DNA of 64,000 nucleotides from the NCBI GenBank assembly GCA_963843275.1, contig CAWJJM010000011.1, forward strand, positions 133,756 to 197,755. The letters are read 5' to 3'. Below, one piece after another: positions 7,828 through 64,000 of this stretch. Each line of letters begins with the position of its first letter. Position 1 is the first letter of the stretch. A program made the translations under genes and the position numbers. The notes under the pieces are model-generated. The model had not been told where the DNA came from. It saw only the letters and a list, made by a program, of their open reading frames with translations, and ran no database searches. The DNA comes from an uncultured Acidobacteriota bacterium. Lineage in GTDB: Bacteria > Acidobacteriota > Thermoanaerobaculia > Multivoradales > JBCCEF01.

Positions 7828-7912
7828 CCGCCGCCGGCGGCGGCCGAACCGACGCCACGACCGCGATGCGCCTCCCGACGCCCGCCACCCCCCGCCGCCG
7901 CCGGAGTGCGCC

Positions 7913-9967
<2,055 letters not shown>

Positions 9968-44444: not shown

Positions 44445-46042
44445 GGCGGGCCCCAGCCGCCGCCGCCCGGCGTCTCGAGGACCAGGCGGTCGCCCGGCGC
44501 GACCTCGCAGCCGTCCACCGCGCCCAGCTCGACCACGGCGCCGTCGGCCCGCACGAGGCGCTGGCGGCCGGGGGCGCCGGGCCCGCCGCCGGCGCCGCCG
44601 CGCGGCCCCGCGGCGCGGTGCTGGGTGAGCAGCGACAACGACATCGGCGCCAGGAACTCGATCTCCCGCACCACGCCGTCGCCGCCCCGCCAGCGGCCGG
44701 CGCCCCCCGAGCCGCGGCGCACCGCGAAGCGCCACAGCCGCACCGGGTAGCGCAGCTCGAGCACCTCGGGGTCGGTGGCGCGGGTGTTGGTCATGTGGCT
44801 GTGCACCGCCGAGGCGCCGGCGAAGCCCGGCCCGGCGCCGCAGCCGCCGGCCACCGTCTCGTAGTAGCCGAAGCGGTCGCTGCCGAAGAGCACGTTGTTC
44901 ATCGTCCCCTGGCTGCCGGCGGCGAGGCCGAGCGCCGCCAGCAGGACGTCGACCAGGCGCTGGCTGGTCTCCACGTTGCCGCCGACCACGGCCGGACAGC
45001 GCGCCGGGTCGTCGGGGAACGGCGGGTCGAGGAAGCTGCCCGGCGGCACCACCAGCTCGACGGGCCGCGCCAGCCCCTCGTTGAGCGGCAGCGGCTCGCC
45101 CACCAGGAGGCGCAGGACGTAGAGCACCGCGGACCGCACCACCGCCGGCGTGGCGTTGAGGTTGCCCGGGTGCACCGGGCCCGAGCCGGTGAAGTCGATG
45201 CGCGCCGCCGGGCCCCCGGCGTCGGGGCGTAGCTCCACGGCCACCCGCAGCGGCGTGCCGTCGTCGAGCCGGTCCTCGGCGGTCCGCGCTCCGGCCGGCA
45301 GGCGCTCCGCCAGGCGTCCCAGCGCGGCACGCAGCAGGCTCTCGGCCCGTACCTCCAGGCCGGCCATCGCCGCGGCCACGGTGTCGGCGCCCGCCGCTCC
45401 GGCCAGCGCCCGCAACGCCTCGGCGCCACGCCGGTTCGCCGCCACCGCCGCGGCCAGATCGGCGAGGTTCTCCTCCACCGCCCGCGAGGGCCACGGCGGC
45501 GCCTCGAGGCGGCCCCGCACCTGCTCCCACCGCGCCACGCCCGCCCGGAACAGGTGCACCGGCGGCAGGACCACGCCCTCGTCGGCCAGGCGCCGCGCGT
45601 CCGGCGGCATCGAGCCGGGACGGCTGCCGCCGATCTCCGCGTGGTGGGCGCGGCTGGCCGCATAGCCGAGCAGCTCCCCGGCCGCGGACCCCGCCCCGGC
45701 GCCAGCGGCGAACACCGGCGTGATCACCGTCACGTCGGGCAGGTGCGAGCCGCCATACCCGGGATGGTTGGTGACCACCACGTCGCCCGGCTCCAGCGGG
45801 ACCGTCGCCGCCACCCGGCGCACGCAGAGGCCGAGGGCGCCGAGGTGCACCGGGATGTGGGGGGCGTTGACCACCAGCCCGCCGGCCGGGTCGAGCAGGG
45901 CGCAGGAGAAGTCCAGCCGCTCCTTGACGTTGGTCGACAGCGCGGTGCGCCGCAGCATCTCGCCCATCTCCCGGGCGATGGCGGCGAAGCGGTTGGTGAA
46001 CAGCTCCAGCCGCACCGGGTCGGCGAGGGGTGGCGCCGTCAT
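44441..46042 (-). CDS. hyuB: Hydantoinase B / oxoprolinase family protein
   Basis: Trimmed to the ATG at 46042 (ATGA overlap with the upstream gene). ...[44 protein letters not shown]..., ...[18 protein letters not shown]-like segment ([23 protein letters not shown]). Confidence 0.9.
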
Positions 46043-46545
46043 CCCGGCTCGATCGGCTGCGGAGCGGCCACGGCCGCCGGGGCAGGCAGCTCGCGCGCCC
46101 GTGGCCAGCCCAGGGCCATCCCCACCCAGGCCGCGGCGCCGAACAGGACGGCCCACCGCGGGCTCCCGCTGGCCAGGGCGAGGACCAGCCCGACCACGGC
46201 GGCGGCCTCGCGCAGCGCGAAGCCGACCAGCTTCGCCGTCCGGTAACGGTCCAGCCGATCGGCCGCCGTCGCACCCCCGGGGGTCTGCCGCTGCCGCGCC
46301 AGGAGCCGGCGCTCGACGAGCGGCGCGGCGACCAGCAGCAGCGCGCCCGTGGCGGCGAGCATCCCGGGCAGGGGAGACGGCAGGACGGCCCGCGGAAACC
46401 CGCCGAACCGACCGGAGGTCAGGGCCCAGGCGACGGCGACGTACGCGGCCACCGCGGCGGCCAGCGCACCGGCCACGACCTGCACGGCGAGCAGGCGGGG
46501 GGCACCGGGGCCGACGGCCGGCGTCTGCGGGTTCCCTGTGGTCAT
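46039..46545 (-). CDS. Hypothetical 4-TM membrane protein, translationally coupled to hyuB
   Basis: Trimmed to the ATG at 46545 (SD GGAGGAAGG). Four hydrophobic helices. No family recognised. Confidence 0.6.
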
Positions 46546-46747
46546 CCCGACCCTTCCTCCCCCGCGGACCGCGGCCCTCGGCCGGCGCGGCACCGCGCCG
46601 CCGGTCCCTCCCATCCTCGTCCTCCCGCGTCCGCGTGGAGCGGCGCCATGATGGGACGGCGCCGGAGCGCTGTCAAGACGGCGCGGCGCCCCGCCCGGCA
46701 CCCACCGGGCTGGTAGGATCGCGCGCCACGGCGCTCCGGACCATCGC

Positions 46748-47314
46748 ATGCAGCAGCCGACCATCATCGGTGAGGATCCCGGCGAAGGCGACGCGCTCCC
46801 GGACGTTTCCGAGCGCTCCGCCGAGCTCGCCCGCCGCTACTCCCGCCTCATCCACTCCGCCGTCGCCACGGTCGCCGGAGGCGACGCCGCGCGGCTCGCC
46901 GACGACGTCGAGCAGCACGTGCTGATCCAGCTCTTCCGCCAGCTCGCCGGTGAGCAAGAGATCCGCCATCCGGCCTCTTATCTATACCGGGCGGCCGTGC
47001 GCGAGACCGTTCGGGTGCTGCGCCTCGAGGCGCGGTACGAGCGCGGGCGGGCGGCGGCCGGCGAGCTGCCGTCCACCGCCGGGCCCGATCCCGAGCGGGC
47101 GCTCGCCGCCCGCGAGCTGCGCGAGAAGGTGTCGACGGCGCTCGGCAGCCTGACCGCCGCGCGCCGGCGGGCGGCCCGGGCCCACCTGGCCGGGTTCGAC
47201 GTGAGGGAGATCATGGCGATGTATGGCTGGACCTACAACCGGGCCCGCAACCTGATCGCACGGGGCATGGCCGACCTGCGGCGGGCCCTGCGTTCCCGAG
47301 GCGTCGATGGCTGA
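46748..47314 (+). CDS. ECF-type RNA polymerase sigma-70 family factor
   Basis: Region 2-like ...[13 protein letters not shown]...[15 protein letters not shown]; region 4 HTH ...[45 protein letters not shown]. Confidence 0.85.
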
Positions 47315-47975
47315 GCCGCCGCTGCTGCCGGGGCCCGCCTGGCAGACCTCCGCCGGCGAGCACCCGTCCGCCGAGGCGTGGGAGCACCTCGCCTGCGGCG
47401 AGCTGGCGGCCGCCGAACGCCGCCGTCTGCTCGACCACGTGGCGGGCTGCACCGAGTGCACGCGCATCTACCGCGCCCTCGGCATCCTGGAGCGCGGCGC
47501 CCGCGCCTTCGACCCCGGCGTCCCGCGACGGGGGCTGGCGCTGCCGGCGCGGCCCGGGCCGGTGGCGTGGCGCTGGGGTGCGGCGGCCGCCCTCGCCGCC
47601 GCCGCGGCCGCGGTCGTCCTGTGGATCGGCGTCCGCCCGCCGGCGCCGGCCGTGCCCCCCGCCGCCGGCGTCGTCCGCTCCGGACCGGCGGCGGCGGTCC
47701 CGGTCCTGCGTTCGCCGCTCGGCACGGTCGCCGGGCCGGTCGCCTTCGCCTGGGAGGCGGTGCCCGGAGCGGTGCGCTACCGCCTCGAGCTGCTCGACGC
47801 CGACGGAGAGGTCCTCGGCGCGGTGGTGACCGGCGGCACCGGGGCGGCCTGGCCGGCCGCCGTCCCGGCCCGTCCCGGCCGCTACTACTGGCGGGTCGTC
47901 GCCGATCTCGAGCGCGGCGGCACCGCCGCCTCGCCGTTGGCCGACTTCGAGCTCACCGGTCCGCCGACCCGCTAG
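47307..47975 (+). CDS. Anti-sigma factor (zf-HC2 type), single TM helix, extracytoplasmic domain of about 110 aa
   Basis: 8-nt overlap with the sigma gene. H-X3-C...H-X3-C-X2-C (WEHLACGE...LDHVAGCTECTRIY). TM helix WGAAAALAAAAAAVVLWIG. C-terminal domain ...FAWEAVPGAVRYRLELLDADGEVL...GRYYWRVVA... Confidence 0.78.
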   Translation: MAEPPLLPGPAWQTSAGEHPSAEAWEHLACGELAAAERRRLLDHVAGCTECTRIYRALGILERGARAFDPGVPRRGLALPARPGPVAWRWGAAAALAAAAAAVVLWIGVRPPAPAVPPAAGVVRSGPAAAVPVLRSPLGTVAGPVAFAWEAVPGAVRYRLELLDADGEVLGAVVTGGTGAAWPAAVPARPGRYYWRVVADLERGGTAASPLADFELTGPPTR

Positions 47976-48154
47976 ACACCGGATGCGCCCTACATCCACG
48001 CCGGTCTCCAGCTCCGCCCCCGGCCGGAGTCGCCGGACGCCCGCGCCGGGGAAGCTCGCCCCGCCGGCGACGCGCGCCGCGCCGCGCCGCCGGGTCACGC
48101 CCGACGAGGAACGCAACTCGAGCCGCCCCACCCCCCTGCGAGCGGGCGTGAGCG

Positions 48155-49273
48155 TCACGCGGCGGGACGCCGGGGTAGCGTGAACACCGGCACCACCCAG
48201 CCCGCCTCGAGGTCGATTCCCAGGACGACCACGTGGAGGAGCAGCGTCCACGAGATCCTCTCCGCCGGCGAGCGCCACACGGTCGGCCGGCAGCCGCTCG
48301 GGATGTCGAAGGCGACCGGCACGGCGGCACCGCGCGGCCCGAGGTAGAGGTCGGCCGGCGGCACCGAGCGTTCCGCGGACCAGAGCTCGGAGTGCCCGAT
48401 GCGGCGGCTCGCTCGGCCGCTGGAGCCGGGTGGTGGAGGGTCCAGGGCCCATCGCGTGCAGACCAGGCGGAGGCGGATGGCCTTCGGCGCGCTGCCCAGG
48501 CCGGTGAGGATGCGACCCTCGAGCCGGCCTCCGATCGCCCCGGGCAGCGTGCTCATCTCGAAGGTCGAGGCGCCGAAGCGCCAGCGGACGAGCCACAGGC
48601 GCAGTGCCAGGCCGGCGAGCAGGAGCGCGGGGACGAGCCACGCGGCGCTGGGCAGCAGCGCCCGGGCGAGCCCGGCGGGGTCGTCGCGCCAGCGCGCCAG
48701 GTCCGGGGGGGAGCTCCGCCAGACGACGAGGACCATCGGCAAGGCCAGGGCCGCAGCGCCGGCTGCCGCCAGGGCGAAGAGGGCCGAGGTCGCTCCCACC
48801 CGCCCGCGCAGCCGGCCGGTCGCCCACTCCTCGTTCCAGCGCCACGGCTCGTCCGGAGAGGCCTGTCGCAGCACCTCGGAGGCGTCGGGCTCCCGCAACC
48901 CGCCGTGCCGGAGCCCTGCGCCGTCGGGCATCGCCCGGAACAGCGCGGTGAGGGCCACCAGCCCGCCGAGCAGCGAGGCGGCGCCCAGCGACCCCATCGG
49001 CTCCCAGCCCGGCTCCCCGAAGGCCCATCGCACCACCGCGACCGACAGCGCGGCGAGCCCCAGCACCTGCGCCAGTCCCGAGATCGCCAACCCCGCGCAG
49101 GCGAGCCCGCCGCGGCCGACGACGGCGAGCGCGCCGCGCAACTCCGCGTCCGAGGGCAGCCCGGGGTTCGTGGCGGGCTCCGTCGCGGTCTCCGAAACGG
49201 GGCTGAAGTCCTCCAGAGGGACGAGCGCGGCGGCCTCCCGGCGGCCCTCGTCGTCGCCGGCGAGCCGGCTCAC
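48155..49273 (-). CDS. Hypothetical membrane protein: 4 TM helices plus a C-terminal soluble domain of about 150 aa
   Basis: GTG start with GGGGGAGGGG upstream. Protein-like composition, unlike the overlapping + frames. The C-terminal pattern (...FEMSTLPGAIGGRLEGRI...IRLRLVC...VPVAFDIPSGCRPT...ISWTLLLH...GIDLEAGWVVPVF) looks like an all-beta sandwich. Last gene of the minus-strand unit 51797->48155. Confidence 0.6.
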   Translation of the reverse strand: MSRLAGDDEGRREAAALVPLEDFSPVSETATEPATNPGLPSDAELRGALAVVGRGGLACAGLAISGLAQVLGLAALSVAVVRWAFGEPGWEPMGSLGAASLLGGLVALTALFRAMPDGAGLRHGGLREPDASEVLRQASPDEPWRWNEEWATGRLRGRVGATSALFALAAAGAAALALPMVLVVWRSSPPDLARWRDDPAGLARALLPSAAWLVPALLLAGLALRLWLVRWRFGASTFEMSTLPGAIGGRLEGRILTGLGSAPKAIRLRLVCTRWALDPPPPGSSGRASRRIGHSELWSAERSVPPADLYLGPRGAAVPVAFDIPSGCRPTVWRSPAERISWTLLLHVVVLGIDLEAGWVVPVFTLPRRPAA

Positions 49274-49334
49274 CCCCTCCCCCTGGCGGCCGGTCGGCCT
49301 CCGGCGAGGACGAGGCGGCAGGCGAGGGGGCCGC

Positions 49335-50999
49335 TCACCGGTGAGCGGACCGGGCCGGAGGCACCCCGCCTTCGCCGCGCCGCCGCAGGGCCCAGGCCGC
49401 AGCGGCCGCCAGGACGAGGGCGAGCGCGACCAGGCCCGACCGCCCGAGCGCCGGGATCTCGAGGACCGACGCTGCCGTCACCACGACGCAGGCGGAGAAC
49501 TCGGAGCTGTCGCCGGTGGGGTCGGAGACGCTGGCCACGGCGGTGACGAACCAGCCGGGGGGCACGGCCGGAAGGGAAACGTCGATCGGCCCGCTGCCGG
49601 AGCCGTCGGTGGAGACCTGCGCGAAGCCCAGGTACTGCTCGCCCTCGCCGAAGCCGGACGGATCGCAGGCGGAGCTGGCGTAGAAGGAGACCAGGAAGGG
49701 ACGGCCGGGATCCGACTCGAGGAGGCCGGTGACGGCCGTGACGCCGCCGCTCGCGACGGCGCTCGCCAGCTCCGGGTAGTTCTGGAGGTGGTTGTGGCCA
49801 CCGTCGCCGTCGCCCGGGTCGTTCGCCGTCACGCCGTCGTCGCCGAGGTCGATCCCCAGCCCGTCGTTGGCGAAGATGCGGTTGCCGCGGAAGGTGTTCT
49901 GGAGGTTGTCGACGGCGCCGGCGACGGCGATGCCGGCGCCGTGGTTGAAGGCGATGACGTTGGCCTGCTCGGGCTGCAGGCCGCCGACGACGTTGCCGTC
50001 GCAGCTGCCGCCGCTGGTGCCGATGTGGACGCCGTCGGAGCCGTTCGGGATCGGCACGGTCCCCGTCGCATCGGTGCCGATGAAGTTGCCCTGGATGACG
50101 GCCGAATCGGCGCCGAGGCCGATGAGGATCCCGCGCGAGGCGTTGCCGGAGATGACGTTCCCCTCGCCCGCCGCGCTCCCCCCGACGAGGTTGTACGCCG
50201 AGGCGAGACCGTCGATGCTGAGACCGACGAAGTTCGGCAGCGCCGTGAGCCCGTCGGCGCCGACGCCGATGAAGTTGCCGAGGACCCGGTCGTCGCTCGT
50301 GTTGCTGGCGAGCGACACGCCGTGCTGCGGGCTGCCGGCGAGGAGGTTGCGATCGGCCGGGTCGGCGCCGCCGATCCGGTGGCCCGACCCGCCGAGCACC
50401 GCGACGTTCGAGCCCCCGTTGCCGAACGCCGTGGTCCCGGCGGGATCGGTGCCGAGGAAGTTGCCGGCGATCACGCAGTCGTCGGCACCGTCGAGGACGA
50501 TGCCGGCGCCGCCGGGGCTCGAGCCGCCGAAGACGAAGCGGTTGATCACCAGCCCGCGCAGGGTGCTGCCGCTGCCGCCGGCATCGACCGACAGGCCGAC
50601 GCTCCCGGACCCCGCCGCCGAACCGTCGATCTCGATCAGCAGCACCGCGTCGTCGCTCGCCGACCGGGTGTTGGCGCTCGCCCCCGGCTGGCTGGTGCCG
50701 TCGATCGTCATCGGCACGCTGACCGCCGGCAGCGGGCTGGCGGGCTGCAGGGTGTGGACGCCGGCGCCGGGGATGGCGAACTCGATCCGGTCGTCCGTGC
50801 CGTAGGCCCCGACGGCCACGACGTCCGGGTCGACCGCGCTGCCGAGGTCGAGCGACAGCAGCGCCTCGCGCAGGGTGACGACGCCGTCGGTCGCGACGCC
50901 GTCGCCGCCGCTGGTCACGGTGACCGTCGCCGCCCGGGCGCCGATGCCCCCGAGAAGCGCCGGAAGAACGAGCAGACCTGCGAGCACCGCCCGCCTCAT
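49335..50999 (-). CDS. Secreted right-handed parallel beta-helix repeat protein (CSLREA-like N-terminus) with IPTL-CTERM-like sorting signal
   Basis: Trimmed to the ATG at 50999 (SD GAGGAGG; signal peptide MRRAVLAGLLVLPALLGGIGARA). ...GVVTLREALL..., repeated GNF(I/L)G(T/V)(D/G)..G units, ...NHLQNYPEL.... C-terminus ...VLEIPALGRSGLVALALVLAAAAAWALRRR... Confidence 0.82.
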   Translation of the reverse strand: MRRAVLAGLLVLPALLGGIGARAATVTVTSGGDGVATDGVVTLREALLSLDLGSAVDPDVVAVGAYGTDDRIEFAIPGAGVHTLQPASPLPAVSVPMTIDGTSQPGASANTRSASDDAVLLIEIDGSAAGSGSVGLSVDAGGSGSTLRGLVINRFVFGGSSPGGAGIVLDGADDCVIAGNFLGTDPAGTTAFGNGGSNVAVLGGSGHRIGGADPADRNLLAGSPQHGVSLASNTSDDRVLGNFIGVGADGLTALPNFVGLSIDGLASAYNLVGGSAAGEGNVISGNASRGILIGLGADSAVIQGNFIGTDATGTVPIPNGSDGVHIGTSGGSCDGNVVGGLQPEQANVIAFNHGAGIAVAGAVDNLQNTFRGNRIFANDGLGIDLGDDGVTANDPGDGDGGHNHLQNYPELASAVASGGVTAVTGLLESDPGRPFLVSFYASSACDPSGFGEGEQYLGFAQVSTDGSGSGPIDVSLPAVPPGWFVTAVASVSDPTGDSSEFSACVVVTAASVLEIPALGRSGLVALALVLAAAAAWALRRRGEGGVPPARSAHR

Positions 51000-51098
51000 G
51001 TCGCGCACCTCCTCACACACCGGTTCGAGACAGAGAGAGGGCTGCGGAGCGCGACTTGCTCACCTCCCGTCGCCGGTCCCGGGGCGGAGGAGTCCTCG

Positions 51099-51797
51099 TC
51101 ATCGGGGTGCCGGCGCCCGCGATCCGACGAACCGCCGGCGACGCCCGCGCAGGCGGAGCAATCCGTGCCCGGCGAGCAGGCTCACCAGAGCGAGCAGGCC
51201 CCAGGGGCCGACGGCGGGGACCGCCGCCGCCAGGGCGGGGGAGCCGGGCTCGACCCCCAGGCGGTACGGTGGAGGAAAGCTGGCGCCGAACCCGGGGTCG
51301 ACCGGCACCCCGACCAGCAGGTCCGCCGTCACCGGGAACAGGATGCAGCTCTGGGTCGAAACCTGCCAGGCGTAGGACACCGTCAGCAAGCTCGGCGGCA
51401 CGGTCGGGTCGATGCGGTAGAGCGTCTCTCCGCCGCCATCGGTGAGGAAGAAGGGCGTCGAGGAGAACTTGAGCTCGGGAGGCCCGCTCTGGGTCAGCAG
51501 CGAGGGGAAGACGTGGGGGGGACCGACGCAGTCGCTCTCTGCGTAGAAGGACTCGAAGGTCAGGTTCTCGTTGCGCACCGCAGCGATGCCGGTCTCGCCG
51601 TCGACGCTCAGGGTGGTGAGCGCCAGCGACGCGCTCATGATGGTGCTGGTCGGCGAGTCCTCCCGTTCGAAGTCGACGACCCGCCCGAGCGTCTCTCCGT
51701 TCGACGCCCGGACGACCGCGCTGCCCGCCGGGAGAACCTGTGCCGTGGCGCCCCCGCCCCACAGGGCGAGCACCGCCAGGATTGCGACCCTCTTCAT
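51099..51797 (-). CDS. Small secreted hypothetical protein with IPTL-CTERM-like sorting signal
   Basis: Trimmed to the ATG at 51797 (SD AAGGAGG; signal peptide MKRVAILAVLALWGGGATA). C-terminus ...AAAVPAVGPWGLLALVSLLAGHGLLRLRGRRRR... Confidence 0.72.
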   Translation of the reverse strand: MKRVAILAVLALWGGGATAQVLPAGSAVVRASNGETLGRVVDFEREDSPTSTIMSASLALTTLSVDGETGIAAVRNENLTFESFYAESDCVGPPHVFPSLLTQSGPPELKFSSTPFFLTDGGGETLYRIDPTVPPSLLTVSYAWQVSTQSCILFPVTADLLVGVPVDPGFGASFPPPYRLGVEPGSPALAAAVPAVGPWGLLALVSLLAGHGLLRLRGRRRRFVGSRAPAPR

Positions 51798-51938
51798 TGC
51801 AGCCTCCTTTCTCACCCGCGATCCCGGGACGGCGGCACCGACCGCCGGCAGGACGGCCAGCCATCCGGGCTCCGGCTGGCTCGTGAGCCCTCGCGGGCAC
51901 CCGCTCCTCGGCAGGTCCCGTCTCCGAGAGAGGGGGGT

Positions 51939-51964
51939 GGAGCCCGACCTGCTCACCTCACGTC
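51939..51964 (+). promoter_or_regulatory. Candidate ECF-type promoter (GGAGCC-16 nt-CGTC) upstream of the CHAT gene
   Basis: tGGAGCC cgacctgctcacctca CGTC, ending 14 nt before the ATG at 51979. Resembles the generic ECF GGAAC-N16/17-CGTC architecture. There is no SD and no TAnnnT element here. Confidence 0.25.
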
Positions 51965-51978
51965 GCCGCCCCACCGGG

Positions 51979-54900
51979 ATGAGATACTGGGAGCCACCCT
52001 TGAAGGCCTCGCTCCAGACGGTCGTCCGCGCCGCCCTGGCGGCTCTGCCGGGGCTCGGCCTGGCCCTGGCGCTGAGCGCCTGCGGCGGCGGTTCCGAGGG
52101 ACTGCTCGTCACCGCTTGCGAACCCTGGGGAGCGGCGAGCCGGTCGGGGGTCGAGATCGGCGATCGGTTGGTCGGTTGGCGGAGCGGCGGCCAGGTCGGC
52201 CGGCTGCGCACGCCACTCGATCTCTTCGTCGTCGAGATCGAGCAGGGCCTGGACGGCCCGGTCACGCTCGAGGTCGACCGCCGTGGTCACCGCCGCCTGC
52301 TCCGCCTCGACGGCGGAGCCTGGGATCTCGAGACCCGAACGGGCGGTGGCGACGCCGACCCTCCCGGGGAGGGCTCGGATCACACCCTCCGGCGGCTCCG
52401 CGCGCAGGCCGCCGCCGCCGCGGCGGCGGCCGACCCCCGGCTCGCCGCCTGGTGGCACGTGGCCGAGGGCGACCTGCTGACCGGGGCTGGGCGCTTCGCC
52501 GAGGCGGGGCGCGCCTACGCCCAGGCCCGGCACGAGAGCGCCGGACCGGCGGCGAGGGCGGCCGTCGACGACTGGCAGGCCCGGCGGCTGATCGCCGCCG
52601 GCAGGCTCGACGACGCGGCGGCGGCGGAGCGCCGCGCCCTCCACCTGCGCGCGGGGCGGGACCCCGGCGGCGCCGCGGTCGCGGTCTCCCTCTACCAGCT
52701 CGGCCGCATCGCCGCGCGCCGCCAGCGCTGGGACGACGAGGCGAAGCTGACCCGTGCCGAAGCGATCCTCCTTGCGATGCCGCGCGGCCGCGAGCTGCTG
52801 GCCGAGGTCCTCAACCTGCGCGGCATGATGGCCTGGGGCCGGCGTGACCTCGACGCGGCCGCCGGCCACTACCGGGCGGCCGCGTCGCTCCTCGCCGGCC
52901 TCGGCCGCGAGAACCCGCTGCGCGCCAATCTCCTGGGCAACCTCGGGCTCGTCGCCGAGCTGCGCGGCGACATGGGCGAGGCGGCCGGGTTGTTCGCCGC
53001 CGCGGCGGCCCTGCACGCCCGGGTCGACCCGGAGAGCGTCGACGCCGCCTACGCGTACAACTACCTCGGCATCCTGGCCAAGCAGAAGGGCGACCTGGCC
53101 GCCGCCGAGCACTGGTACCGGCGCGCCGAGGCGGTCTTCGAGGTGGCGCTTCCCGACGGCGTGGAGACCGCCGGGATGCTCAACAACCTGGGCAACCTGG
53201 CCCTGCGACGCGGCGAGCTGGCCGCCGCGGAGCGCCTCCACCGTCGGGCGCTGGCGGTTCGCCAGCGAATCGTGCCGGGAACGGCCGACCACGCGGCGAG
53301 CCTGCAGAACCTCGGTCAGGTGCTGGAGCTCGAGGGCGAGACCGAACGCGCCGAGCCCTACCTGGTCGAGGCCCGGGCGATCAAGGCCCGGGTGGTCCCG
53401 GACAGCCTCGACTACTCCAACGCCCTCACCGCCCTCGGCCGTCTGCGCCAGGACCAGGGGCGGCTCGACGAGGCCGAGTCCCTCCACCGCGAGGCGCTGG
53501 ACCTGCGCCGCGCGGTGGCGGAGGGGCGCTGGGAATGGGCGGAGAACCTCTTCTTCCTCGGGGAGATCGCCCTCGCCCGCGGAGACCGGGGCGACGCCGA
53601 GAAGCTCTGGCGTCAGGCGGTCGACGGGATCGAGCAGAACCGCGAGCGCCCCGAGTGGGACCCGGAGGAGCGCTCCGGCTTCGCCGCCCCCTTCCAGCGC
53701 TACTACCGGCGGCTGGCGGCGCTGCTGGCGGCCGGCGGCCGTGCGCGCGAGGCCTTCGAGCTGCTGGAGAGCGCCCGCGCCAGGGCGCTGCGCAGCCTGC
53801 TCGCGGCACGCCGGCTACGCCACCCCGCCGGTCTGACGGCGCCGCGGGCGGCACGGCGCGACGCCCTCCGGGAGGCGCAGGGCAGGCGGCTCGACGAGAT
53901 CGCGGCCGCGCTCGGCGAGGGCGCGGTGCTGCTCGCCTACTCGGTGGCCGAGGACGGCACCCTGCTCTTCGTCGTCGCCGGTGGGACGGCCCGTGCGCCG
54001 CAGGTCCACCGCATCCCGGCCGGGGAGGAAGAGCTGCGCTCGCGGGTGGCGATCTTCCGCGCCCTGGTCGAACGCGGGCGCCGGGGCGGCGCGGTGGTCG
54101 AGCCGGCGCTCCTCGCCCAGGGCCGCTGGCTCTACGAGCGCCTCGTCGCTCCCGCCGAGAACGCCCTCGCCGGCGCCGAGCGCATCGTGATCGTCCCCGA
54201 CGGGCCGCTCTTCTCGCTGCCCTTCGCCGCCCTGGTGCGCCGCCGCCGGCCGACGGTGGCCTGGCTGGGGGGCTGGCGGCCGCTCAGCATCGTCCCCGCG
54301 GCCGGTGTCCTGGTCGAGCTCGGCCCGGCCGGCCGCAGGGCCCGCCCGCCGCGCCGGCTCGTCGCCTTCGCCGACCCGGTCTACCCGCCGGGCGGGCTGG
54401 CGCCCCTGCCGGGGACGCGCTCGGAGGTCTCCCGCCTCGCGCCCCTCTTCCCGGGCAGCCTCGTCTACCTGGGGCGCGACGCCACCGAGGACCGCCTGGG
54501 GGCCTTGCCGTCGTCCCCGCTCATCCTCCACCTCGCCGTCCACGGACTGCTCGACGAGCGCTTCCCGCTGGAGTCGGCGCTGGCGTTCTCGACCCCCGCG
54601 GCGGCGGCGCCGGCGCGTGAGGACGGTCTGCTCCACGCCTGGGAGGTGCCCGAGCGGCTCGATCTCGACGCCGACCTCGTGGTGCTCTCCGCGTGCGATT
54701 CGGGCCGTGGACGCGAGCTGCCGGGGGAGGGGATCCTGGGGCTCGCCCGCGCCTTCCAGATCGCCGGCGCCCGCGCCGTGCTGGCCTCCCAGTGGGCGGT
54801 CGCCGACCGCTCGACCGGCGAGCTGATGGTCCGCTTCTACCGCCACCTCGCGGCCGGCCGGTCCGCCGCCGCCGCCCTCGCCGCCGCACAGCGCGAGCTG

Positions 54901-54990
54901 GCCGACGGCGACGCCGACGGCGCCGGCCTCGCCGCGGCCCGGCACCCCTTCGCCTGGGCCGGCTTCCAGCTCGTCGGCGACGGCAACTGA
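51979..54990 (+). CDS. Lipoprotein with PDZ-like domain, TPR repeats and C-terminal CHAT (caspase-like, clan CD) peptidase domain
   Basis: Track ORF 51571..54990 trimmed to the ATG at 51979. Lipobox ...GLALALSAC. PDZ-like ...GVEIGDRLVGWRS...VTLEVDRRG. At least 7 TPR-like units (e.g. NYLGILAKQKGDLAAAEHWYRRAEAVF, NNLGNLALRRGELAAAERLHRRALAV). CHAT His ...ILHLAVHG... and Cys ...LVVLSACDSGRG... Confidence 0.85.
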   Translation: MRYWEPPLKASLQTVVRAALAALPGLGLALALSACGGGSEGLLVTACEPWGAASRSGVEIGDRLVGWRSGGQVGRLRTPLDLFVVEIEQGLDGPVTLEVDRRGHRRLLRLDGGAWDLETRTGGGDADPPGEGSDHTLRRLRAQAAAAAAAADPRLAAWWHVAEGDLLTGAGRFAEAGRAYAQARHESAGPAARAAVDDWQARRLIAAGRLDDAAAAERRALHLRAGRDPGGAAVAVSLYQLGRIAARRQRWDDEAKLTRAEAILLAMPRGRELLAEVLNLRGMMAWGRRDLDAAAGHYRAAASLLAGLGRENPLRANLLGNLGLVAELRGDMGEAAGLFAAAAALHARVDPESVDAAYAYNYLGILAKQKGDLAAAEHWYRRAEAVFEVALPDGVETAGMLNNLGNLALRRGELAAAERLHRRALAVRQRIVPGTADHAASLQNLGQVLELEGETERAEPYLVEARAIKARVVPDSLDYSNALTALGRLRQDQGRLDEAESLHREALDLRRAVAEGRWEWAENLFFLGEIALARGDRGDAEKLWRQAVDGIEQNRERPEWDPEERSGFAAPFQRYYRRLAALLAAGGRAREAFELLESARARALRSLLAARRLRHPAGLTAPRAARRDALREAQGRRLDEIAAALGEGAVLLAYSVAEDGTLLFVVAGGTARAPQVHRIPAGEEELRSRVAIFRALVERGRRGGAVVEPALLAQGRWLYERLVAPAENALAGAERIVIVPDGPLFSLPFAALVRRRRPTVAWLGGWRPLSIVPAAGVLVELGPAGRRARPPRRLVAFADPVYPPGGLAPLPGTRSEVSRLAPLFPGSLVYLGRDATEDRLGALPSSPLILHLAVHGLLDERFPLESALAFSTPAAAAPAREDGLLHAWEVPERLDLDADLVVLSACDSGRGRELPGEGILGLARAFQIAGARAVLASQWAVADRSTGELMVRFYRHLAAGRSAAAALAAAQRELADGDADGAGLAAARHPFAWAGFQLVGDGN

Positions 54991-55136
54991 GCCGGCGGCG
55001 CGGCCGCACCCGGCTCGGCCGGCGGCGGCCGGTGAGCAAACCGCGCCGCCCCCGCCTCTACCGGGGATGGACCCACCGCTTCGCGGGCCGGCCGCCGCCG
55101 GTCGCGCGAGCCGTGGCGAACCGACGAGGAGCGCCC

Positions 55137-57176
55137 ATGGACCGCCGCCGACAGATCCCGGAGCGACGAGGCCGCGGGGAGCGCCGCCGCCGCCCGCGGC
55201 GGGTCGGCTGCGCCGTCGCCGCCCTGGCGCTCGCCGGGGCCGGCCTCCCGCGCAGCGCCGCCGCCGACACCGTCTACGCCGATCCCGCGGGCGCCTGCGC
55301 CACGCTCACCCCCTGTTTCACCACCCTGCAGGCGGCGATCGACGACGTCCACGCGCCCGGCACGGTGGGGCTCTTCCCGGGCACCTACGCCGAGAGCGTC
55401 GACCTCGACACCATGGGCTCGTCCGTGGGTGGCGGGCCCGGCGACCTGACCCTGCAGGCGCTCGACGCCGGCGGTTCGCCGGCCACCGGCGGGGTGACGA
55501 TCGATCCCGGCGCGTCGGGCGGACCGGGGACCGGACGAGCGATCCACGGCGGGCTGCTGGTCGCCTTTCCCGGCGACCTCGTGGTGCACGGGATCGGACT
55601 GACGTCTCCCGACAGCGGCGGCGTGGTGGTGGTCACCGACGGCGGCGTGGAGCTCGCCGACGTCGTGATCCAGAGCTGCGCCGACAACGGTGGAACGCTC
55701 CTCGCCCAGGGTCCGGTCTCCCTGACGCGGCTGGTCGCCTTCCTCAACGCCGGCTCAGGCCTGGGCGCCCTCGGCTCCGCGGTCACGGTGGACGACGCCA
55801 CGGCCGACCGCAACCAGGGGACCGGCCTGGTGGTCGCGAGCGACGGAGCGGTGGTCGCCCACGGCATCCATGCCGCCGGCAACGGCGGGAGCGGCCTCTC
55901 CACCCTCTCCTGCACCTCCGTCGAGGTCGAGGACGTGGTCACCGACGACAACGATCTCAACGGCACCGAGGTCGTCGTCGATGCGGGGAGCGGTTGCACC
56001 CCGGGCGGGCTCGCCGCCAGCGCCGCGGCCTCACAGGTCGGCCGCACCCCGGGCTTCGCCGGCGCGCTCGGCGCCGTCGGAACCGCGCCCCGCAGGGTCT
56101 CGGCGCCTGCCAGCGTCGTGGTGGTGGCGTCGATCCACCACCTCTCGGCGACCGGCAACGGCGGGGTGGGAGCCGGGGCCCAGGCGGTCTCCGGCGGCGA
56201 CCCGCTGGGCGGCATCGAAGCCGACGACGTCACGGCGGCCGGCAACGCCAGCCGGGGGCTCGTCCTGGTGGGCGACGACGTCCGGCTCTCGAACGCCACC
56301 CTGACCGGGAACCTGACCGGCACCCTGGTCGCCGGCGTCACGGTGACGGTCTCCCAGGTCGTGGCGAGCGACAACGCCCCGGGGACCTACACGCCCCCGG
56401 ACGAAGGGTCCGGCCTGGCGGTCGCCACCTCCGGCGCCGCCGAGCTCAACGACGTGGTGGCCGAGCGCAACGCCTTCGCGGGCCTGGTGCTGAGGACCTT
56501 CGACGGGCCCTCACCGGCGGGCCCCTACCGGATCGCCGGTGGCCGCTTCGCCGCCAACGCGGTCGGGATCGGCTCGTTCGGAGACGGCGAGGTCGTCGTC
56601 GCGATCGACGGCAGCGAGGTCGCCGACAACGGTGCGGCCGGGATCGCGCTGCCCAAGCTGCGGAGCGGGATCGTGCACGCCACCCTCGCCACCGGCAACG
56701 TGGCCGGGATCACCGCCGGCGTCGAGGGCCTCCTCGACGTCCGTGCCTCGGAGGTGTCCGGCAACCAGGAGGGTCTCGTCCTGGCGGTGCAGCCCGACGC
56801 CGTCGCCCGGATCCTGTGCTCGAACGTGCGCGACAACGTCCCCGGTGCCGGTCTCGAGCTGTTCGATGGGAGCGCGGTCGACGCCCGCGCCGACTTCTGG
56901 GGCGACCCCTCCGGGCCGACCCATCCGGACAATCCCGGAGGCGTCGGCGACGAGGTGGTGGACGGCGCCAACGGCGGCGTCGGCAGCGTCGACTTCTCCG
57001 CCTTCCTTGGGGCGGCGGCCACGGCGGACGACTGCCCCGCGATCTCCGCCGTCGAGATCCCCACCGCGGGCGCCTCCGGGCTGCTGGCGCTGGCGGGGCT
57101 GCTGGCGCTCGCCGGGCTCTCCGTCCTCGCCGGGCACCGCCGCCGGACGGGGGCCGAGGGGCGCGGCGCGCCCTAG
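55137..57176 (+). CDS. Secreted right-handed beta-helix repeat protein with IPTL-CTERM-like sorting signal
   Basis: Track ORF 54693..57176 trimmed to the ATG at 55137 (SD GAGGAG; Arg-rich n-region plus VGCAVAALALAGAGLPRSAAA). ...CFTTLQAAIDDVHAPGTVGLFPGTYAESVDL..., many ...N.G.GL.V... coils. C-terminus ...SAVEIPTAGASGLLALAGLLALAGLSVLAGHRRR... Confidence 0.8.
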   Translation: MDRRRQIPERRGRGERRRRPRRVGCAVAALALAGAGLPRSAAADTVYADPAGACATLTPCFTTLQAAIDDVHAPGTVGLFPGTYAESVDLDTMGSSVGGGPGDLTLQALDAGGSPATGGVTIDPGASGGPGTGRAIHGGLLVAFPGDLVVHGIGLTSPDSGGVVVVTDGGVELADVVIQSCADNGGTLLAQGPVSLTRLVAFLNAGSGLGALGSAVTVDDATADRNQGTGLVVASDGAVVAHGIHAAGNGGSGLSTLSCTSVEVEDVVTDDNDLNGTEVVVDAGSGCTPGGLAASAAASQVGRTPGFAGALGAVGTAPRRVSAPASVVVVASIHHLSATGNGGVGAGAQAVSGGDPLGGIEADDVTAAGNASRGLVLVGDDVRLSNATLTGNLTGTLVAGVTVTVSQVVASDNAPGTYTPPDEGSGLAVATSGAAELNDVVAERNAFAGLVLRTFDGPSPAGPYRIAGGRFAANAVGIGSFGDGEVVVAIDGSEVADNGAAGIALPKLRSGIVHATLATGNVAGITAGVEGLLDVRASEVSGNQEGLVLAVQPDAVARILCSNVRDNVPGAGLELFDGSAVDARADFWGDPSGPTHPDNPGGVGDEVVDGANGGVGSVDFSAFLGAAATADDCPAISAVEIPTAGASGLLALAGLLALAGLSVLAGHRRRTGAEGRGAP

Positions 57177-57255
57177 ACGGACCCTCTCCGCCGTCCGGCG
57201 GCAGCCGTGGTGAGCGCCGGTCCGGAGCGCGCACCCGGGTGGCGGGTGGCCGCGG

Positions 57256-59523
57256 TCAGCCGCCCGCGGGAGGGTCCCGCCGTTCCAGGAGCAGGGCGCC
57301 GGCCGCGTCCACCCGGACGTCCCAGCCGGGCGGCACCACCACGGCGCCGTGGGCCTCGAAGACGAGCGCCGGACCGCCGCAGCGGGCGCCCGGCGCAAGG
57401 CGCGAGCGGTCGTGGACCGGCACCCGCCGCCAGCCGCCGCCGAACCAGGCGCGGCGGTGGGCGGCCGGCGGCGGCGCCGTGCTCTCCTCGACCGGCTCCG
57501 GGGCCGGCTCGGGTGCCGCGCGCGACGAGGCCACCACCCGCAACGACTCGACCTCGATCCCCCGGTCGGCCGGCACGTAGCCGTAGCGCTCCCGGTGGGC
57601 GCGGGTGAAGAGCTCGCCGAGCCCGGCGCCGGCGACCGGCTCGACCTCCAGCGTCGACTCCTGCCCGGAGAAGCGCAGGTGCACGAGGCGCCGCCGCACC
57701 GCGACCTCCTCCCGCGCGATCCCCTCGGCGGCCACCGCCGTGGCGGCCTCCTCCCCGAGGTCCGCGAGCCAGGCGGCGAGCCGGTCCTCCACCGCCGCCA
57801 GCGGCGCCAGCACCTGGCGCTGCGCGAAGCGCTCGACCACCGCCGCCCCCAGCCCCCGCGCCGAGAGCAGCCCGGCGTCGCGGGGCACGAGCACGGCGGG
57901 GACGCCGAGCAGCGCGGCCACGGCGCAGGCGTGCTGTCCCCCGGCGCCGCCGAAGGCGACCAGCGTGTGCTCCGCCGGGTCGTAGCCGCGGCGTACCGAC
58001 AGCGTGCGGATGGCGTCCGCCATGCGCTCGTCGGCGATCGCCGCGAAACCCTCGAGCAGGGCCTCGCGGCCGGGGGGCGGGTCGCCGCGGCGGGAGGCGG
58101 CCGCGGCGACCCGCCGCGCCACGGCCTCGAACGCCGCCGCCGCCGCCGCCGGCTCGACCGGGATCCCGAAGCGCTCGGGATCGAGCCTGCCGAGCAGCAG
58201 GTTGACGTCGGTGAGCGCCAGCGGTCCGCCCGCGCCGTAGCAGGCCGGCCCGGGGCGGGCACCGGCGCTCTCGGGTCCGACGGTGAGGGCGGCGCCGTCG
58301 AAGCCGCACACCGAGCCGCCGCCCGCCGCCACCGTCTCGATGGCCAGGGCGGGAGCCACCAGGTGGGCGTCCCCCACCCGGTGCTCGAAGAGGTACTCGA
58401 AGTCGCCGTCCCAGCGCGCCACGTCGGTCGAGGTGCCGCCCATGTCGAACGACAGCAGCCGCCGGTGACCGGAGCGGACGGCGGCCCGCGCCGCCCCCGC
58501 CACGCCGCCGGCCGGGCCGGAGAGCAGGGCGTCGGTGGCGCGCAGGTCGGGCCGCCGCACCAGGCCGCCGGCGCTGGTCATCACGTGCAGGGTGCCGCGC
58601 GCCTCGGGGAGGGCGGAGCCCACGGCGTCGAGGTAGCTGTCGAGGACCGGCGCCAGGTAGGCCTCGACCACCGCCGTCTCGGCGCGCGGCACGTAGCGCG
58701 CCAGCGGCGCCAGCTCGGCCGAGGCGACCACGCGGGTCAGCCCGCCGCGGCGCAGCGCCGCCGCCACCGCCCGCTCGGGCGCCGGGTTGCGGTAGCTGTG
58801 CAGCAGCGCCACCGCCACCGCCTCGATCCCCTCGTCGCGCAGCTCCCGGGCCACCGCGCCGAGGCCGTCGAGCGCCGGCGCCCGCAGGGTCGAGCCGTCG
58901 GCGGCGAGTCGTTCGTCCACCTCGACGACGCGGCGGTGCAGCGGGCGCGGCTTGACCACCTCGAGGGCGAACAGGTCCGGCCGCTGCTGGTCGCGGATCT
59001 CGAGCAGGTCGGCGAACCCGCGGGTGACGACCAGGGCGGTGGCGGCACCGCGGCGCTCGAGCAGGGCATTGGTGCCGCGGGTGGTGGCCAGCCGCAGCGC
59101 CATGGGCGGCAACGGCTCGCCGGCGGCGGTGCGGGTGACCAGCCGCGCCGCCAGCACCGGCGCCTCCTCGGCGAAGCGCAGCTCGACCCGGTCGCCGCGG
59201 CGCAGCGCCGCCGGCGGCGCGCCCTGCAGCGTGAAGGCGCCGCGGCCGGCGTCGTAGCCGGCGACGCCGCTCCCCGCGTCCGCCGGCGCGCCCAGCCGGT
59301 GCAGCGCCGCGCCGGCGAAGAACCCGGGGGGCACCGTCCAGCGCGGCTCCACCTCGACGCGGTCTCCCGCCGCCACCCGCACCACCCCGCGCAGGGCGCT
59401 CGACGACAGCACCTTGGCGCGGTGCACGACGCCGTCCGGGGCCACCGCCAGACAGTCGGTGAAGGTGCCCCCGGTGTCGATCCACACCCGCCAGCGCGGG
59501 CCGCTGGTACCGTCGCCGCTCAC
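57256..59523 (-). CDS. hyuA: Hydantoinase A / oxoprolinase family protein
   Basis: GTG start with GGGAGGGAG SD. ...RVWIDTGGTFTDC..., ...ATTRGTNALLERRG..., ...SFDMGGTSTDV..., ...AFGGAGGQHAC... Confidence 0.9.
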   Translation of the reverse strand: MSGDGTSGPRWRVWIDTGGTFTDCLAVAPDGVVHRAKVLSSSALRGVVRVAAGDRVEVEPRWTVPPGFFAGAALHRLGAPADAGSGVAGYDAGRGAFTLQGAPPAALRRGDRVELRFAEEAPVLAARLVTRTAAGEPLPPMALRLATTRGTNALLERRGAATALVVTRGFADLLEIRDQQRPDLFALEVVKPRPLHRRVVEVDERLAADGSTLRAPALDGLGAVARELRDEGIEAVAVALLHSYRNPAPERAVAAALRRGGLTRVVASAELAPLARYVPRAETAVVEAYLAPVLDSYLDAVGSALPEARGTLHVMTSAGGLVRRPDLRATDALLSGPAGGVAGAARAAVRSGHRRLLSFDMGGTSTDVARWDGDFEYLFEHRVGDAHLVAPALAIETVAAGGGSVCGFDGAALTVGPESAGARPGPACYGAGGPLALTDVNLLLGRLDPERFGIPVEPAAAAAAFEAVARRVAAAASRRGDPPPGREALLEGFAAIADERMADAIRTLSVRRGYDPAEHTLVAFGGAGGQHACAVAALLGVPAVLVPRDAGLLSARGLGAAVVERFAQRQVLAPLAAVEDRLAAWLADLGEEAATAVAAEGIAREEVAVRRRLVHLRFSGQESTLEVEPVAGAGLGELFTRAHRERYGYVPADRGIEVESLRVVASSRAAPEPAPEPVEESTAPPPAAHRRAWFGGGWRRVPVHDRSRLAPGARCGGPALVFEAHGAVVVPPGWDVRVDAAGALLLERRDPPAGG

Positions 59524-59656: not shown

Positions 59657-64000
<4,344 letters not shown>

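Follow-up and report, generated by a model that had tools for sequence, protein, structure and literature searches.

Gene content of the locus

We analyzed a window of 64,000 nucleotides from the genome of an uncultured acidobacterium (contig CAWJJM010000011.1, positions 133,756 to 197,755), and focus here on a block of seven genes (positions 46546-57255 of the window, 10,710 nucleotides) that separates hyuA from hyuB, the genes for the A and B subunits of a hydantoinase/oxoprolinase. The block encodes a sigma factor of the extracytoplasmic function (ECF) type with its anti-sigma factor, a lipoprotein composed of PDZ, TPR and CHAT parts, three secreted proteins whose C-terminal tails resemble the IPTL-CTERM signal, and a protein with four transmembrane helices (4-TM protein; Table 1). 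Genes in this sequence of about 75% G+C were called from third-position G+C content and reading frame, and their products were scanned against Pfam and NCBIfam. For comparison with other loci we used 80 loci anchored on HyuB, retrieved by a metagenome scan, and further loci anchored on the anti-sigma factor or on the CHAT protein; L-numbers denote related loci from metagenomes and metagenome-assembled genomes (MAGs), and P-numbers denote database proteins.

The gene map given in an initial annotation of this DNA stood up well, with all seven block genes, hyuA and hyuB lying where it had placed them and carrying the domains it had named. It had put hyuA and hyuB on the same strand and about 11.2 kb apart; the distance measured was 11,213 nucleotides.

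An ECF sigma factor and its membrane-bound anti-sigma factor

Taken as a single sequence, the sigma factor scores just under the curated cut-offs of sigma factor models (42.2 versus 42.9 bits for TIGR02937, and 20.1 versus 24 bits for Sigma70_r2), and comparison of this one sequence with the PDB was uninformative. A profile built from seven orthologues matched RpoE of E. coli (1or7, E = 1.4e-25, positions 19-183) and also SigW, SigH and CnrH. Both this profile and the presence of a cognate anti-sigma gene directly downstream place the protein among the ECF (group IV) sigma factors, and the same pairing, sigma gene followed by anti-sigma gene, is seen in L094, L098, L100, L101 and L106.

The anti-sigma factor (222 amino acids) contains an H-x3-C-x2-C zinc motif, a single transmembrane segment, a linker rich in Ala and Pro and an extracytoplasmic, FN3-like domain of about 85 residues, which are the features of the ZAS-type (class I) anti-sigma factors, and is thereby a putative zinc-binding protein. 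Its score against zf-HC2 (19.2 bits) is below the cut-off of 22.2 bits, and its PDB matches are weak (RslA, 3hug_B, E = 0.026, and an FN3 protein). We detected 18 relatives besides the protein itself, all of them from metagenomes or MAGs. Among these homologues C51 is invariant, H44 and C48 are nearly so, and a YYWRV motif and the Ala-rich transmembrane segment are conserved. The linker carries conserved RSG and PVLxAPLG stretches with an invariant P137, and 12 of the 18 homologues end in Arg, often as ...PR-COOH. The Arg C-terminus could be a ligand for a PDZ domain, and the RSG/PVLxAPLG linker could be a region of cleavage.

An exported PDZ-TPR-CHAT lipoprotein

The CHAT domain of the third regulatory protein was recognized with high significance (PF12770, E = 5.8e-64). 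The protein aligns over its full length with 40 homologues (29-43% identity), mostly from Acidobacteriota and Gemmatimonadota, in all of which H851, H855 and C906 are invariant; these residues belong to HxxxHG and SAC motifs and correspond to a caspase-type dyad. With a CHAT domain and a His-Cys dyad the protein falls into the CHAT peptidases (clan CD), and peptidase activity is predicted. The N-terminal part follows a PDZ consensus, GVVVExVxPGxAAxxAGLxxGD, and PDZ_6 matched 17 of the 40 members. Most homologues have signal peptides and the copy in the window has a lipobox, LSAC. The CHAT protein is therefore predicted to be exported, and it looks catalytically competent.

An AlphaFold2 model of the protein (pLDDT 86.6, pTM 0.80) comprises a PDZ domain (residues 42-121), about 13 TPR-like helical pairs (133-610) and the CHAT domain (640-1000). 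The best PDB match of this model in Foldseek was the periplasmic TPR-CHAT domain of the Myxococcus anti-sigma factor DdvA (8rw5, 8rot; E = 1e-14, TM-score 0.45-0.51), ahead of separase and the Craspase protease Csx29. A search of the PDB with the full-length sequence gave TPR matches at most. As to the start of the gene, TTG at 52000, which gives the 996 amino acids of database protein P0172, is more likely than the alternative ATG at 51979; an exact database look-up of the longer version found nothing.

The sigma, anti-sigma and CHAT genes recur as a core

In every readable context that was anchored on the anti-sigma gene, all three of the sigma, anti-sigma and CHAT genes were present, and so they were in roughly half of the contexts anchored on CHAT. 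A TPR-CHAT gene (product of 900-1,000 amino acids) adjoins the sigma/anti-sigma pair in L098, L100 and L101/L102, and in one organism that carries two such pairs (L094/L095/L099) it stands beside the second, more distant one. Among the contexts anchored on CHAT, an anti-sigma factor of this family is encoded nearby in L001, L006, L007, L012 and L106; in the three Gemmatimonadales loci (L006, L007 and L012) its gene lies upstream of the CHAT gene, and in L001 the two genes are co-directional. In L003, L008 and L011 a sigma-like match alone was found nearby. The anti-sigma and TPR-CHAT genes are separate in every related locus, and in the window about 4 kb lie between them. To judge from these sequences, the conserved core is the set of ECF sigma factor, zinc-finger anti-sigma factor and exported PDZ-TPR-CHAT protein, tightly associated in close relatives and more loosely with distance.

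The closest orthologous module (L001) is in a MAG of the Thermoanaerobaculia, with a CHAT protein 67%, an anti-sigma factor 63% and a beta-helix protein 2 52% identical to those in the window. There the gene for beta-helix protein 2 directly follows the CHAT gene, no hyu genes are near, and the entire minus-strand unit is absent. In L099, an IPTL-CTERM gene and a gene resembling that of beta-helix protein 1 converge on the orthologous anti-sigma gene. Which additional proteases (S8, M14, tricorn/S41, M1) and other secreted proteins are encoded beside the modules differs between loci. In none of the other loci examined did all seven genes occur together, and the idea that the seven families would co-occur did not hold; what recurs is the sigma, anti-sigma and CHAT genes, joined by beta-helix protein 2 in L001 and by a beta-helix-1-like gene in L099.

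Loci L094, L095, L096, L097 and L099 come from one population with paralogous pairs and rearranged variants. On some of these contigs the first sigma gene is cut to its last ~27 codons, directly after a gene of 397 amino acids. The rearranged variants suggest recombination between module copies in that population.

A bipartite motif precedes the genes for the tail-bearing proteins

A direct repeat of 43 nucleotides (D5, 86% identity between its copies) led us to a bipartite motif, GGTGAGCA-N16-CCTCT. This motif has exactly three perfect matches on the two strands of the 64 kb, compared with none in 100 shuffles, and each of these matches lies upstream of, and in the same orientation as, one of the three genes whose products carry IPTL-CTERM-like tails (Table 1). 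An exact copy precedes the orthologue of the beta-helix 2 gene in L001 (4644-4672), at the same position as in the window; another lies upstream of the IPTL-CTERM gene in L099, and a copy with one mismatch stands before a secreted-protein gene in L100. No exact copy was present in about 0.9 Mb of hyuB loci. In its 16-nucleotide spacer and its TCTC-type -10 box the motif resembles promoters of the RpoE type. Since the sigma factor is RpoE-like by its profile and the motif is RpoE-promoter-like, we take the motif to be, probably, the promoter of this sigma factor, with the three tail-bearing genes probably forming its regulon. We had also considered a plus-strand reading of D5, as a GGAGC-N17-CGTC promoter for the CHAT gene, which was dropped in view of the minus-strand boxes shared with the third site and with orthologous loci.

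The initial annotation had divided the block into three transcription units. The order and strands of the genes agree with this division, but there are probably more promoters, as each surface-protein gene has a motif copy of its own.

A further copy of the motif, with a spacer of 17 nucleotides, lies inside the sigma gene. It is made up of the rare AT-ending codons GGT, CAA, CAT and TCT (followed by TAT and CTA) in a gene whose G+C content at third codon positions (GC3) is ~0.9, and in the orthologous sigma genes of L094 and L100 it is conserved at synonymous positions. This intragenic copy may act as a promoter that depends on the sigma factor and drives the anti-sigma gene as feedback.

Upstream of the sigma and CHAT genes themselves the regulon motif is absent, and conserved housekeeping-type -10-like boxes are found instead. 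One such box, TGAGATACT, precedes the CHAT start in both the window and L001, and the sigma start is preceded at ~35 nucleotides by TAGGAT in the window, L094 and L098 and by TAGAAT in L100. Such an arrangement fits sensor genes that are needed before the signal arrives, rather than targets of the sigma factor.

The secreted proteins and the 4-TM protein

All three secreted proteins end in a tripartite tail composed of a motif, a hydrophobic helix and an Arg cluster. We compared these tails with the IPTL-CTERM models TIGR04174 (cut-off 20.5 bits) and PF18203 (cut-off 20.8 bits). TIGR04174 scored the tail of beta-helix protein 1 at 20.2 bits and that of the small secreted protein at 13.6 bits, and did not match that of beta-helix protein 2; PF18203 scored the full-length small secreted protein at 19.7 bits and the tail of beta-helix protein 2 at 12.0 bits. 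The product of the IPTL-CTERM gene in L099 passes its cut-off, at 22.0 bits. The initial annotation had ascribed a shared sorting signal to these proteins; a common tail is present, and its best scores fall just under the IPTL-CTERM cut-offs. The window contains no exosortase-like gene. An IPTL-CTERM tail has been reported on a surface S-layer protein of Methylomirabilis, and by analogy a cell-surface location of the tail-bearing proteins is a reasonable expectation.

Beta-helix proteins 1 and 2 have no detectable relation to each other, and neither has a solved relative that could be found in the PDB by sequence. Beta-helix protein 1 shows GNxIG-type repeats by eye and has no Pfam match, and it is only by these repeats that it is called a beta-helix protein. 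Its C-terminal region is 80% identical to the product of the gene next to the orthologous anti-sigma gene in L099. For the small secreted protein we detected no homologue in any fetched locus. Elsewhere, secreted proteins encoded beside the modules in L001 (392-1342, minus strand, and ~6971-8500, plus strand) and in L094 (3299-3877, plus strand) share the end motif GFESGD..(A/C)W(S/N)..P-COOH, which is a different, putative C-terminal tag recurrent in Thermoanaerobaculia-like MAGs.

The 4-TM protein has four transmembrane helices followed by a C-terminal beta sandwich of the arrestin-N/Spo0M type (AlphaFold2 pLDDT 83; Foldseek matches to arrestin N-lobes and Spo0M, E = 2e-6). Its family comprises 1,424 representatives at E<=1e-3, which are typically 480-600 amino acids long, and no Pfam model covers the family core. 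P143, W144 and W150 (PWxWxxxW) are invariant in this family, of which some members have in addition a DUF3592 domain at the N-terminus or HEAT repeats at the C-terminus. In L104, the gene upstream of the closest 4-TM homologue (85-1089, plus strand) encodes a secreted protein whose N-terminal domain weakly resembles the FN3-like ectodomain of the anti-sigma factor (BLASTP E = 0.02). The two homologue contexts that were read showed no link to sigma or CHAT genes. We considered the 4-TM protein as a sorting enzyme for the tails and rejected this on account of its large family, unrelated contexts and arrestin-like soluble domain; the protein is probably accessory cargo, perhaps recruited to the regulon.

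The block interrupts a conserved hyu operon

HyuA and HyuB are both full length by Pfam, and their usual adjacency is broken here. In the 80 HyuB loci, with the gap measured between aligned ends, hyuA lies directly upstream of hyuB on the same strand in 69 cases, with a median gap of 42 nucleotides, and the gap is 200 nucleotides or less in 66 of these 69. Of the remaining 11 loci, three have less than 220 nucleotides of upstream sequence and eight are different paralogue contexts; two of the latter (L014 and L015) have CoxE-like and molybdopterin dehydrogenase genes upstream of hyuB. The order hyuA-hyuB-nramp is found in 20 of the 80 loci and is widely conserved in the metagenomes (L016-L080). 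The seven block genes are absent from all 80 loci. In the two closest high-GC relatives, L025 and L033 (HyuB 73-74% and HyuA 60% identical), the order is hyuA, small membrane protein gene, hyuB, and the gap of 0.9-1.1 kb holds a small membrane protein of the same topology as that in the window. The small membrane protein therefore belongs to the ancestral operon and lies outside the insert, and its stop codon overlaps the hyuB start, in line with the translational coupling to hyuB that had been proposed. A start at 46614 would give it 191 amino acids, as called on L093.

Adjacency in relatives, together with the arrangement in L025 and L033, gives hyuA, small membrane protein gene, hyuB, nramp as the ancestral order. 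The comparison of hyu neighborhoods supports the possibility, raised in the initial annotation beside the remark that A and B subunit genes are normally adjacent or fused, that 10.7 kb were inserted between hyuA and the rest of this operon. Between hyuA and the small membrane protein gene, L025 and L033 have in common a conserved element, CCATATACTTAGACC, which differs from the sigma-70-like promoter at the left edge of the insert in the window.

Table 1. Features of the block and its borders, with positions in the 64,000-nucleotide window
Feature	Position	Strand	Remarks
NRAMP-like transporter gene, after hyuB	43149-44438	-	
hyuB, B subunit	44441-46042	-	Hydantoinase_B, E 7e-180; full length
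Small membrane protein	46039-46545	-	stop overlaps hyuB start; alternative start 46614
Sigma-70-like promoter TTGACA-17-CATCAT	46648-46676	-	faces the small membrane protein, hyuB and nramp genes; left edge of insert
ECF sigma factor	46748-47314	+	divergent sequence
Intragenic motif copy, GGTGAGCA-N17-CCTCT	46949-46978	+	inside sigma gene; sequence GGTGAGCAAGAGATCCGCCATCCGGCCTCT, 17-nucleotide spacer
Anti-sigma factor, ZAS-type, single-pass	47307-47975	+	overlaps sigma gene by 8 nucleotides
4-TM protein	48155-49273	-	
Weaker motif copy	49311-49339	-	2 mismatches; 37 nucleotides upstream of 4-TM gene
Secreted repeat (beta-helix-like) protein 1, IPTL-CTERM-like tail	49335-50999	-	signal peptide and tail read from sequence
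Motif GGTGAGCA-N16-CCTCT	51036-51064	-	exact; 36 nucleotides upstream of beta-helix gene 1; within repeat D5
Small secreted protein, IPTL-CTERM-like tail	51099-51797	-	
Motif GGTGAGCA-N16-CCTCT	51929-51957	-	exact; 131 nucleotides upstream of small secreted protein gene; divergent from CHAT gene
PDZ-TPR-CHAT lipoprotein	52000-54990	+	alternative ATG 51979; CHAT E 6e-64; lipobox LSAC
Motif GGTGAGCA-N16-CCTCT	55031-55059	+	exact; 77 nucleotides upstream of beta-helix gene 2
Secreted right-handed beta-helix protein 2, IPTL-CTERM-like tail	55137-57176	+	Beta_helix E 5e-12
hyuA, hydantoinase/oxoprolinase A subunit	57256-59523	-	Hydant_A_N, Hydantoinase_A and Hydant_A_C all match; full length

The block does not have the features of a mobile element. 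As had been noted from the sequence, it lacks an integrase (neither an integrase nor a transposase appears among its Pfam and NCBIfam matches), a flanking tRNA gene, and direct or inverted repeats that pair its two ends; Rfam gave no credible family at the block ends. ARAGORN called a tRNA-Asp inside the sigma gene (47075-47170, minus strand, 96 nucleotides) and a tRNA-Ala inside the Lhr coding sequence (60274-60362, minus strand, 89 nucleotides). Both calls are over-long and lie within coding sequence, and Rfam shows no tRNA between 44 and 60 kb, nor at the second call, so that they are likely false positives in GC-rich DNA. The earlier remark that composition does not shift was right for tetranucleotides, whose profile in the block shows no anomaly, but GC3 is slightly lower in the block (0.931 versus 0.958, Mann-Whitney p about 0.009), short of a clear compositional shift.

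At the left edge of the insert, the near-consensus sigma-70-like promoter is the only match of its kind in 11.8 kb (0.0 expected in shuffles), and the displaced half of the operon could owe its continued expression to it. The locus is a clean example of a regulatory module inside a conserved operon, with a new sigma-70-like promoter before the displaced genes; the insertion into hyuAB is in itself a neat but ordinary event of genome evolution. An Lhr-type helicase gene diverges from hyuA, and the remainder of the window is ordinary chromosome, including recA, NAD synthase, purE and a tricorn protease. A distant M14 carboxypeptidase gene occupies 40433-43114, and in related loci such a gene is often found further downstream of hyuA-hyuB-nramp.

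Discussion

Our analysis agrees with the initial annotation in that the block is functionally coherent, with a regulator of its own, an envelope location, common C-terminal tails and, as an addition to that annotation, a promoter-like motif shared by the three tail-bearing genes. The statement that none of its genes has a specific known function was too strong, since the sigma, anti-sigma and CHAT proteins have a characterized fused relative, DdvA-DdvS of Myxococcus xanthus, in which the TPR-CHAT part is fused to the anti-sigma factor (PDB 8rot, 8rw5; PMC11506125). On balance, and with slightly better than even confidence, we read the block as a self-contained envelope signalling module with its output genes. 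It would be a "split DdvA-like" switch, with proteolysis of the anti-sigma factor under the control of the CHAT lipoprotein. At rest, the anti-sigma factor would keep the sigma factor tethered to the membrane. The PDZ part, the TPR part or both would perceive a signal in the periplasm and so activate the CHAT protease, which would then clip the linker or the ectodomain of the anti-sigma factor, a site-1 cut made in trans. What is left would be removed by an intramembrane protease of the RseP type and by proteases of the cytoplasm. The freed sigma factor would recognize the GGTGAGCA-N16-CCTCT promoters and transcribe the genes of the three surface proteins with IPTL-CTERM-like tails, perhaps along with the 4-TM gene. 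The action of the CHAT protein on the anti-sigma factor is suggested by analogy.

The analogy is close in several respects. As in the window, DdvA-DdvS combines an ECF sigma factor, a single-pass zinc-finger (CHCC/ZAS-type) anti-sigma factor and an extracytoplasmic TPR-CHAT part with a His/Cys dyad, and its authors proposed that DdvA acts as its own site-1 protease ahead of RseP (PMC11506125), a logic of signal-activated CHAT cut and subsequent RseP cut that would apply here as well. In the window, however, the TPR-CHAT protein is a separate lipoprotein with an additional N-terminal PDZ domain, the ectodomain of the anti-sigma factor is small and FN3-like, the host is a high-GC relative of a MAG of the Thermoanaerobaculia (Acidobacteriota) and not a member of the Myxococcota, and the presumed regulon consists of surface proteins and not of CBASS/CRISPR genes. 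The architecture of a periplasmic TPR-CHAT protein is thus shared with DdvA; the fused polypeptide is lacking, and no phage-defence genes were matched in the block. Fused DdvA homologues, for which the authors of the DdvA study searched, were found only in Myxococcota and one Comamonas (PMC11506125), and in the literature that we searched no publication described the pairing of an ECF anti-sigma factor with a periplasmic TPR-CHAT protein that is encoded separately. In its proposed logic the system in the window works like DdvA-DdvS; lacking the fused architecture by which the DdvA family is defined, it falls outside that family.

The DegS-RseA-RpoE-RseP system of E. coli, in which a PDZ-bearing periplasmic protease and a single-pass anti-sigma factor control an ECF sigma factor by regulated proteolysis, offers a second comparison. 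It resembles the window in having a PDZ protease beside a single-pass anti-sigma factor and an RpoE-like sigma factor, and in its bipartite promoter with a 16-nucleotide spacer; in the window the protease combines a caspase (clan CD) fold with a long array of TPRs and is not an HtrA serine protease, and its site-1 role is putative. More specifically, we tentatively suggest, as a rather doubtful elaboration, that the PDZ-TPR-CHAT protein might be a trans-acting, caspase-fold site-1 protease analogous to DegS, with the PDZ domain reading periplasmic C-terminal peptides and the module monitoring and adjusting the export of its own regulon. IPTL-CTERM-like tails that have escaped sorting, or the conserved C-terminal Arg of the anti-sigma factor, would then be candidate ligands of the PDZ domain.

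Other known systems are more remote. In type III CRISPR cascades, the TPR-CHAT protease Csx29 of Craspase cuts Csx30 bound to RpoE, and CalpL-CalpT-CalpS forms a further cascade (PMC10028731; bioRxiv 10.1101/2023.06.23.546230). There a protease, TPR-CHAT or other, cuts the inhibitor of an ECF-type sigma factor and so releases the latter, as is proposed here, but these cascades operate in the cytoplasm and respond to RNA or cyclic oligoadenylate, whereas the system in the window is extracytoplasmic and has no CRISPR genes nearby. The actinobacterial ECF54 sigma factors were described without an anti-sigma factor and with carboxypeptidase, subtilase and CHAT neighbors (PMC8999054, PMC7826278). 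The related loci L094, L099 and L102 are similar in that CHAT, S8 and M14 genes adjoin their ECF sigma genes; by the description of ECF54 the family of the window is set apart from it, as a cognate anti-sigma factor is always present and the closest homologues are in Acidobacteriota and Gemmatimonadota. Finally, the tripartite tails of all three secreted proteins link them to the IPTL-CTERM/PEP-CTERM proteins (TIGR04174, PF18203), from which they differ by the scores just below the curated cut-offs and by the lack of an exosortase-like gene in the window.

Several points weigh against a split DdvA-like switch. None of our results shows cleavage of the anti-sigma factor by the CHAT protein, or contact between the two. 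The likeness to DdvA is at the level of the fold only, with 16% identity; the CHAT domain alone matched nothing in the PDB by sequence; and it is only by position and co-conservation that the motif is tied to this sigma factor. Several CHAT homologues (P0174, L002, L004, L005, L009 and L010) have no sigma or anti-sigma gene within their flanks, and another, P0186, sits near a kinase-linked ECF sigma factor instead. The contexts of the anti-sigma factor were found by anchoring on the anti-sigma factor itself and so are a biased sample. For DdvA, too, it is so far a hypothesis that the CHAT domain makes the site-1 cut, and mutants of the dyad had no phenotype in the absence of a known signal (PMC11506125).

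Other explanations of the block have to be weighed against this one. It is unlikely, in our view, that the CHAT protein is an output or partner of the surface proteins, acting as a maturation or sorting peptidase for the IPTL-CTERM-like tails or as a protease on the beta-helix proteins. The clan CD peptidases PorU and GPI8 remove other C-terminal signals, we know of no sorting enzyme for IPTL-CTERM, and a PDZ domain would suit the binding of C-terminal peptides; moreover, an IPTL-CTERM-like beta-helix gene directly follows the CHAT gene in both the window and L001, and genes of this type also flank the orthologous anti-sigma gene in L099. The constant neighbors of the CHAT gene, however, are the sigma and anti-sigma genes, which in L098, L100, L101 and L106 stand with it where no IPTL-CTERM gene was read alongside, and the CHAT gene does not carry the regulon motif. 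In addition, IPTL-CTERM proteins occur mostly in Proteobacteria, a group in which the matches showed no member of this CHAT family. Somewhat less probable again is a TPR-CHAT protein that controls the anti-sigma factor without cutting it, as a periplasmic co-receptor or scaffold on the FN3-like ectodomain or, via its PDZ domain, on the Arg C-terminus, shielding the anti-sigma factor from another site-1 protease. Such a role would be in keeping with the terminal Arg of most anti-sigma homologues and with the other proteases (S8, M14, tricorn/S41, M1) encoded beside the core genes in L094, L101, L102 and L106, and in DdvA the bulky TPR-CHAT part blocks RseP while the resting dyad is misaligned (PMC11506125). 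The complete conservation of H851, H855 and C906 in 40 homologues that are only 29-43% identical nevertheless argues for retained catalysis.

We regard it as very unlikely that the module is a DdvA/DdvS-like regulator of anti-phage defence, although DdvA, its closest structural relative, controls a CBASS/CRISPR island (PMC11506125) and a McrBC-like gene pair lies ~3 kb downstream of the module in L001. PADLOC models match nothing in the block except the generic TPR, the motif-bearing genes encode secreted surface proteins, and the rest of the window is housekeeping. Least probable of all is an accretion of unrelated genes that share no function, their common motif being a remnant of duplication within the locus. 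Of the three copies of the motif, two do lie inside the direct repeat, the minus-strand unit is missing from L001 and the 4-TM family is unrelated to the rest; but the third copy has nothing beyond the two boxes and their spacing in common with the others, three other organisms, with proteins of 50-67% identity, have conserved the motif in corresponding positions, and the sigma, anti-sigma and CHAT genes recur together in many contexts.

ECF sigma factors with their anti-sigma factors are a major mode of bacterial signalling, and how most of these anti-sigma factors are switched off is unexplained. In the only studied case of an anti-sigma factor linked to a caspase-like domain, DdvA, this domain is fused to it and its role as a protease is a proposal. 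The split architecture described here recurs in uncultured Acidobacteriota and Gemmatimonadota, and its separate protease and presumed substrate, its defined motif and its small regulon make cleavage and reporter assays, as well as regulon prediction, easy to design. If the proposed switch is real, this family would provide the first direct test in trans of the idea, unproven for DdvA, that a CHAT protein can serve as a site-1 protease.

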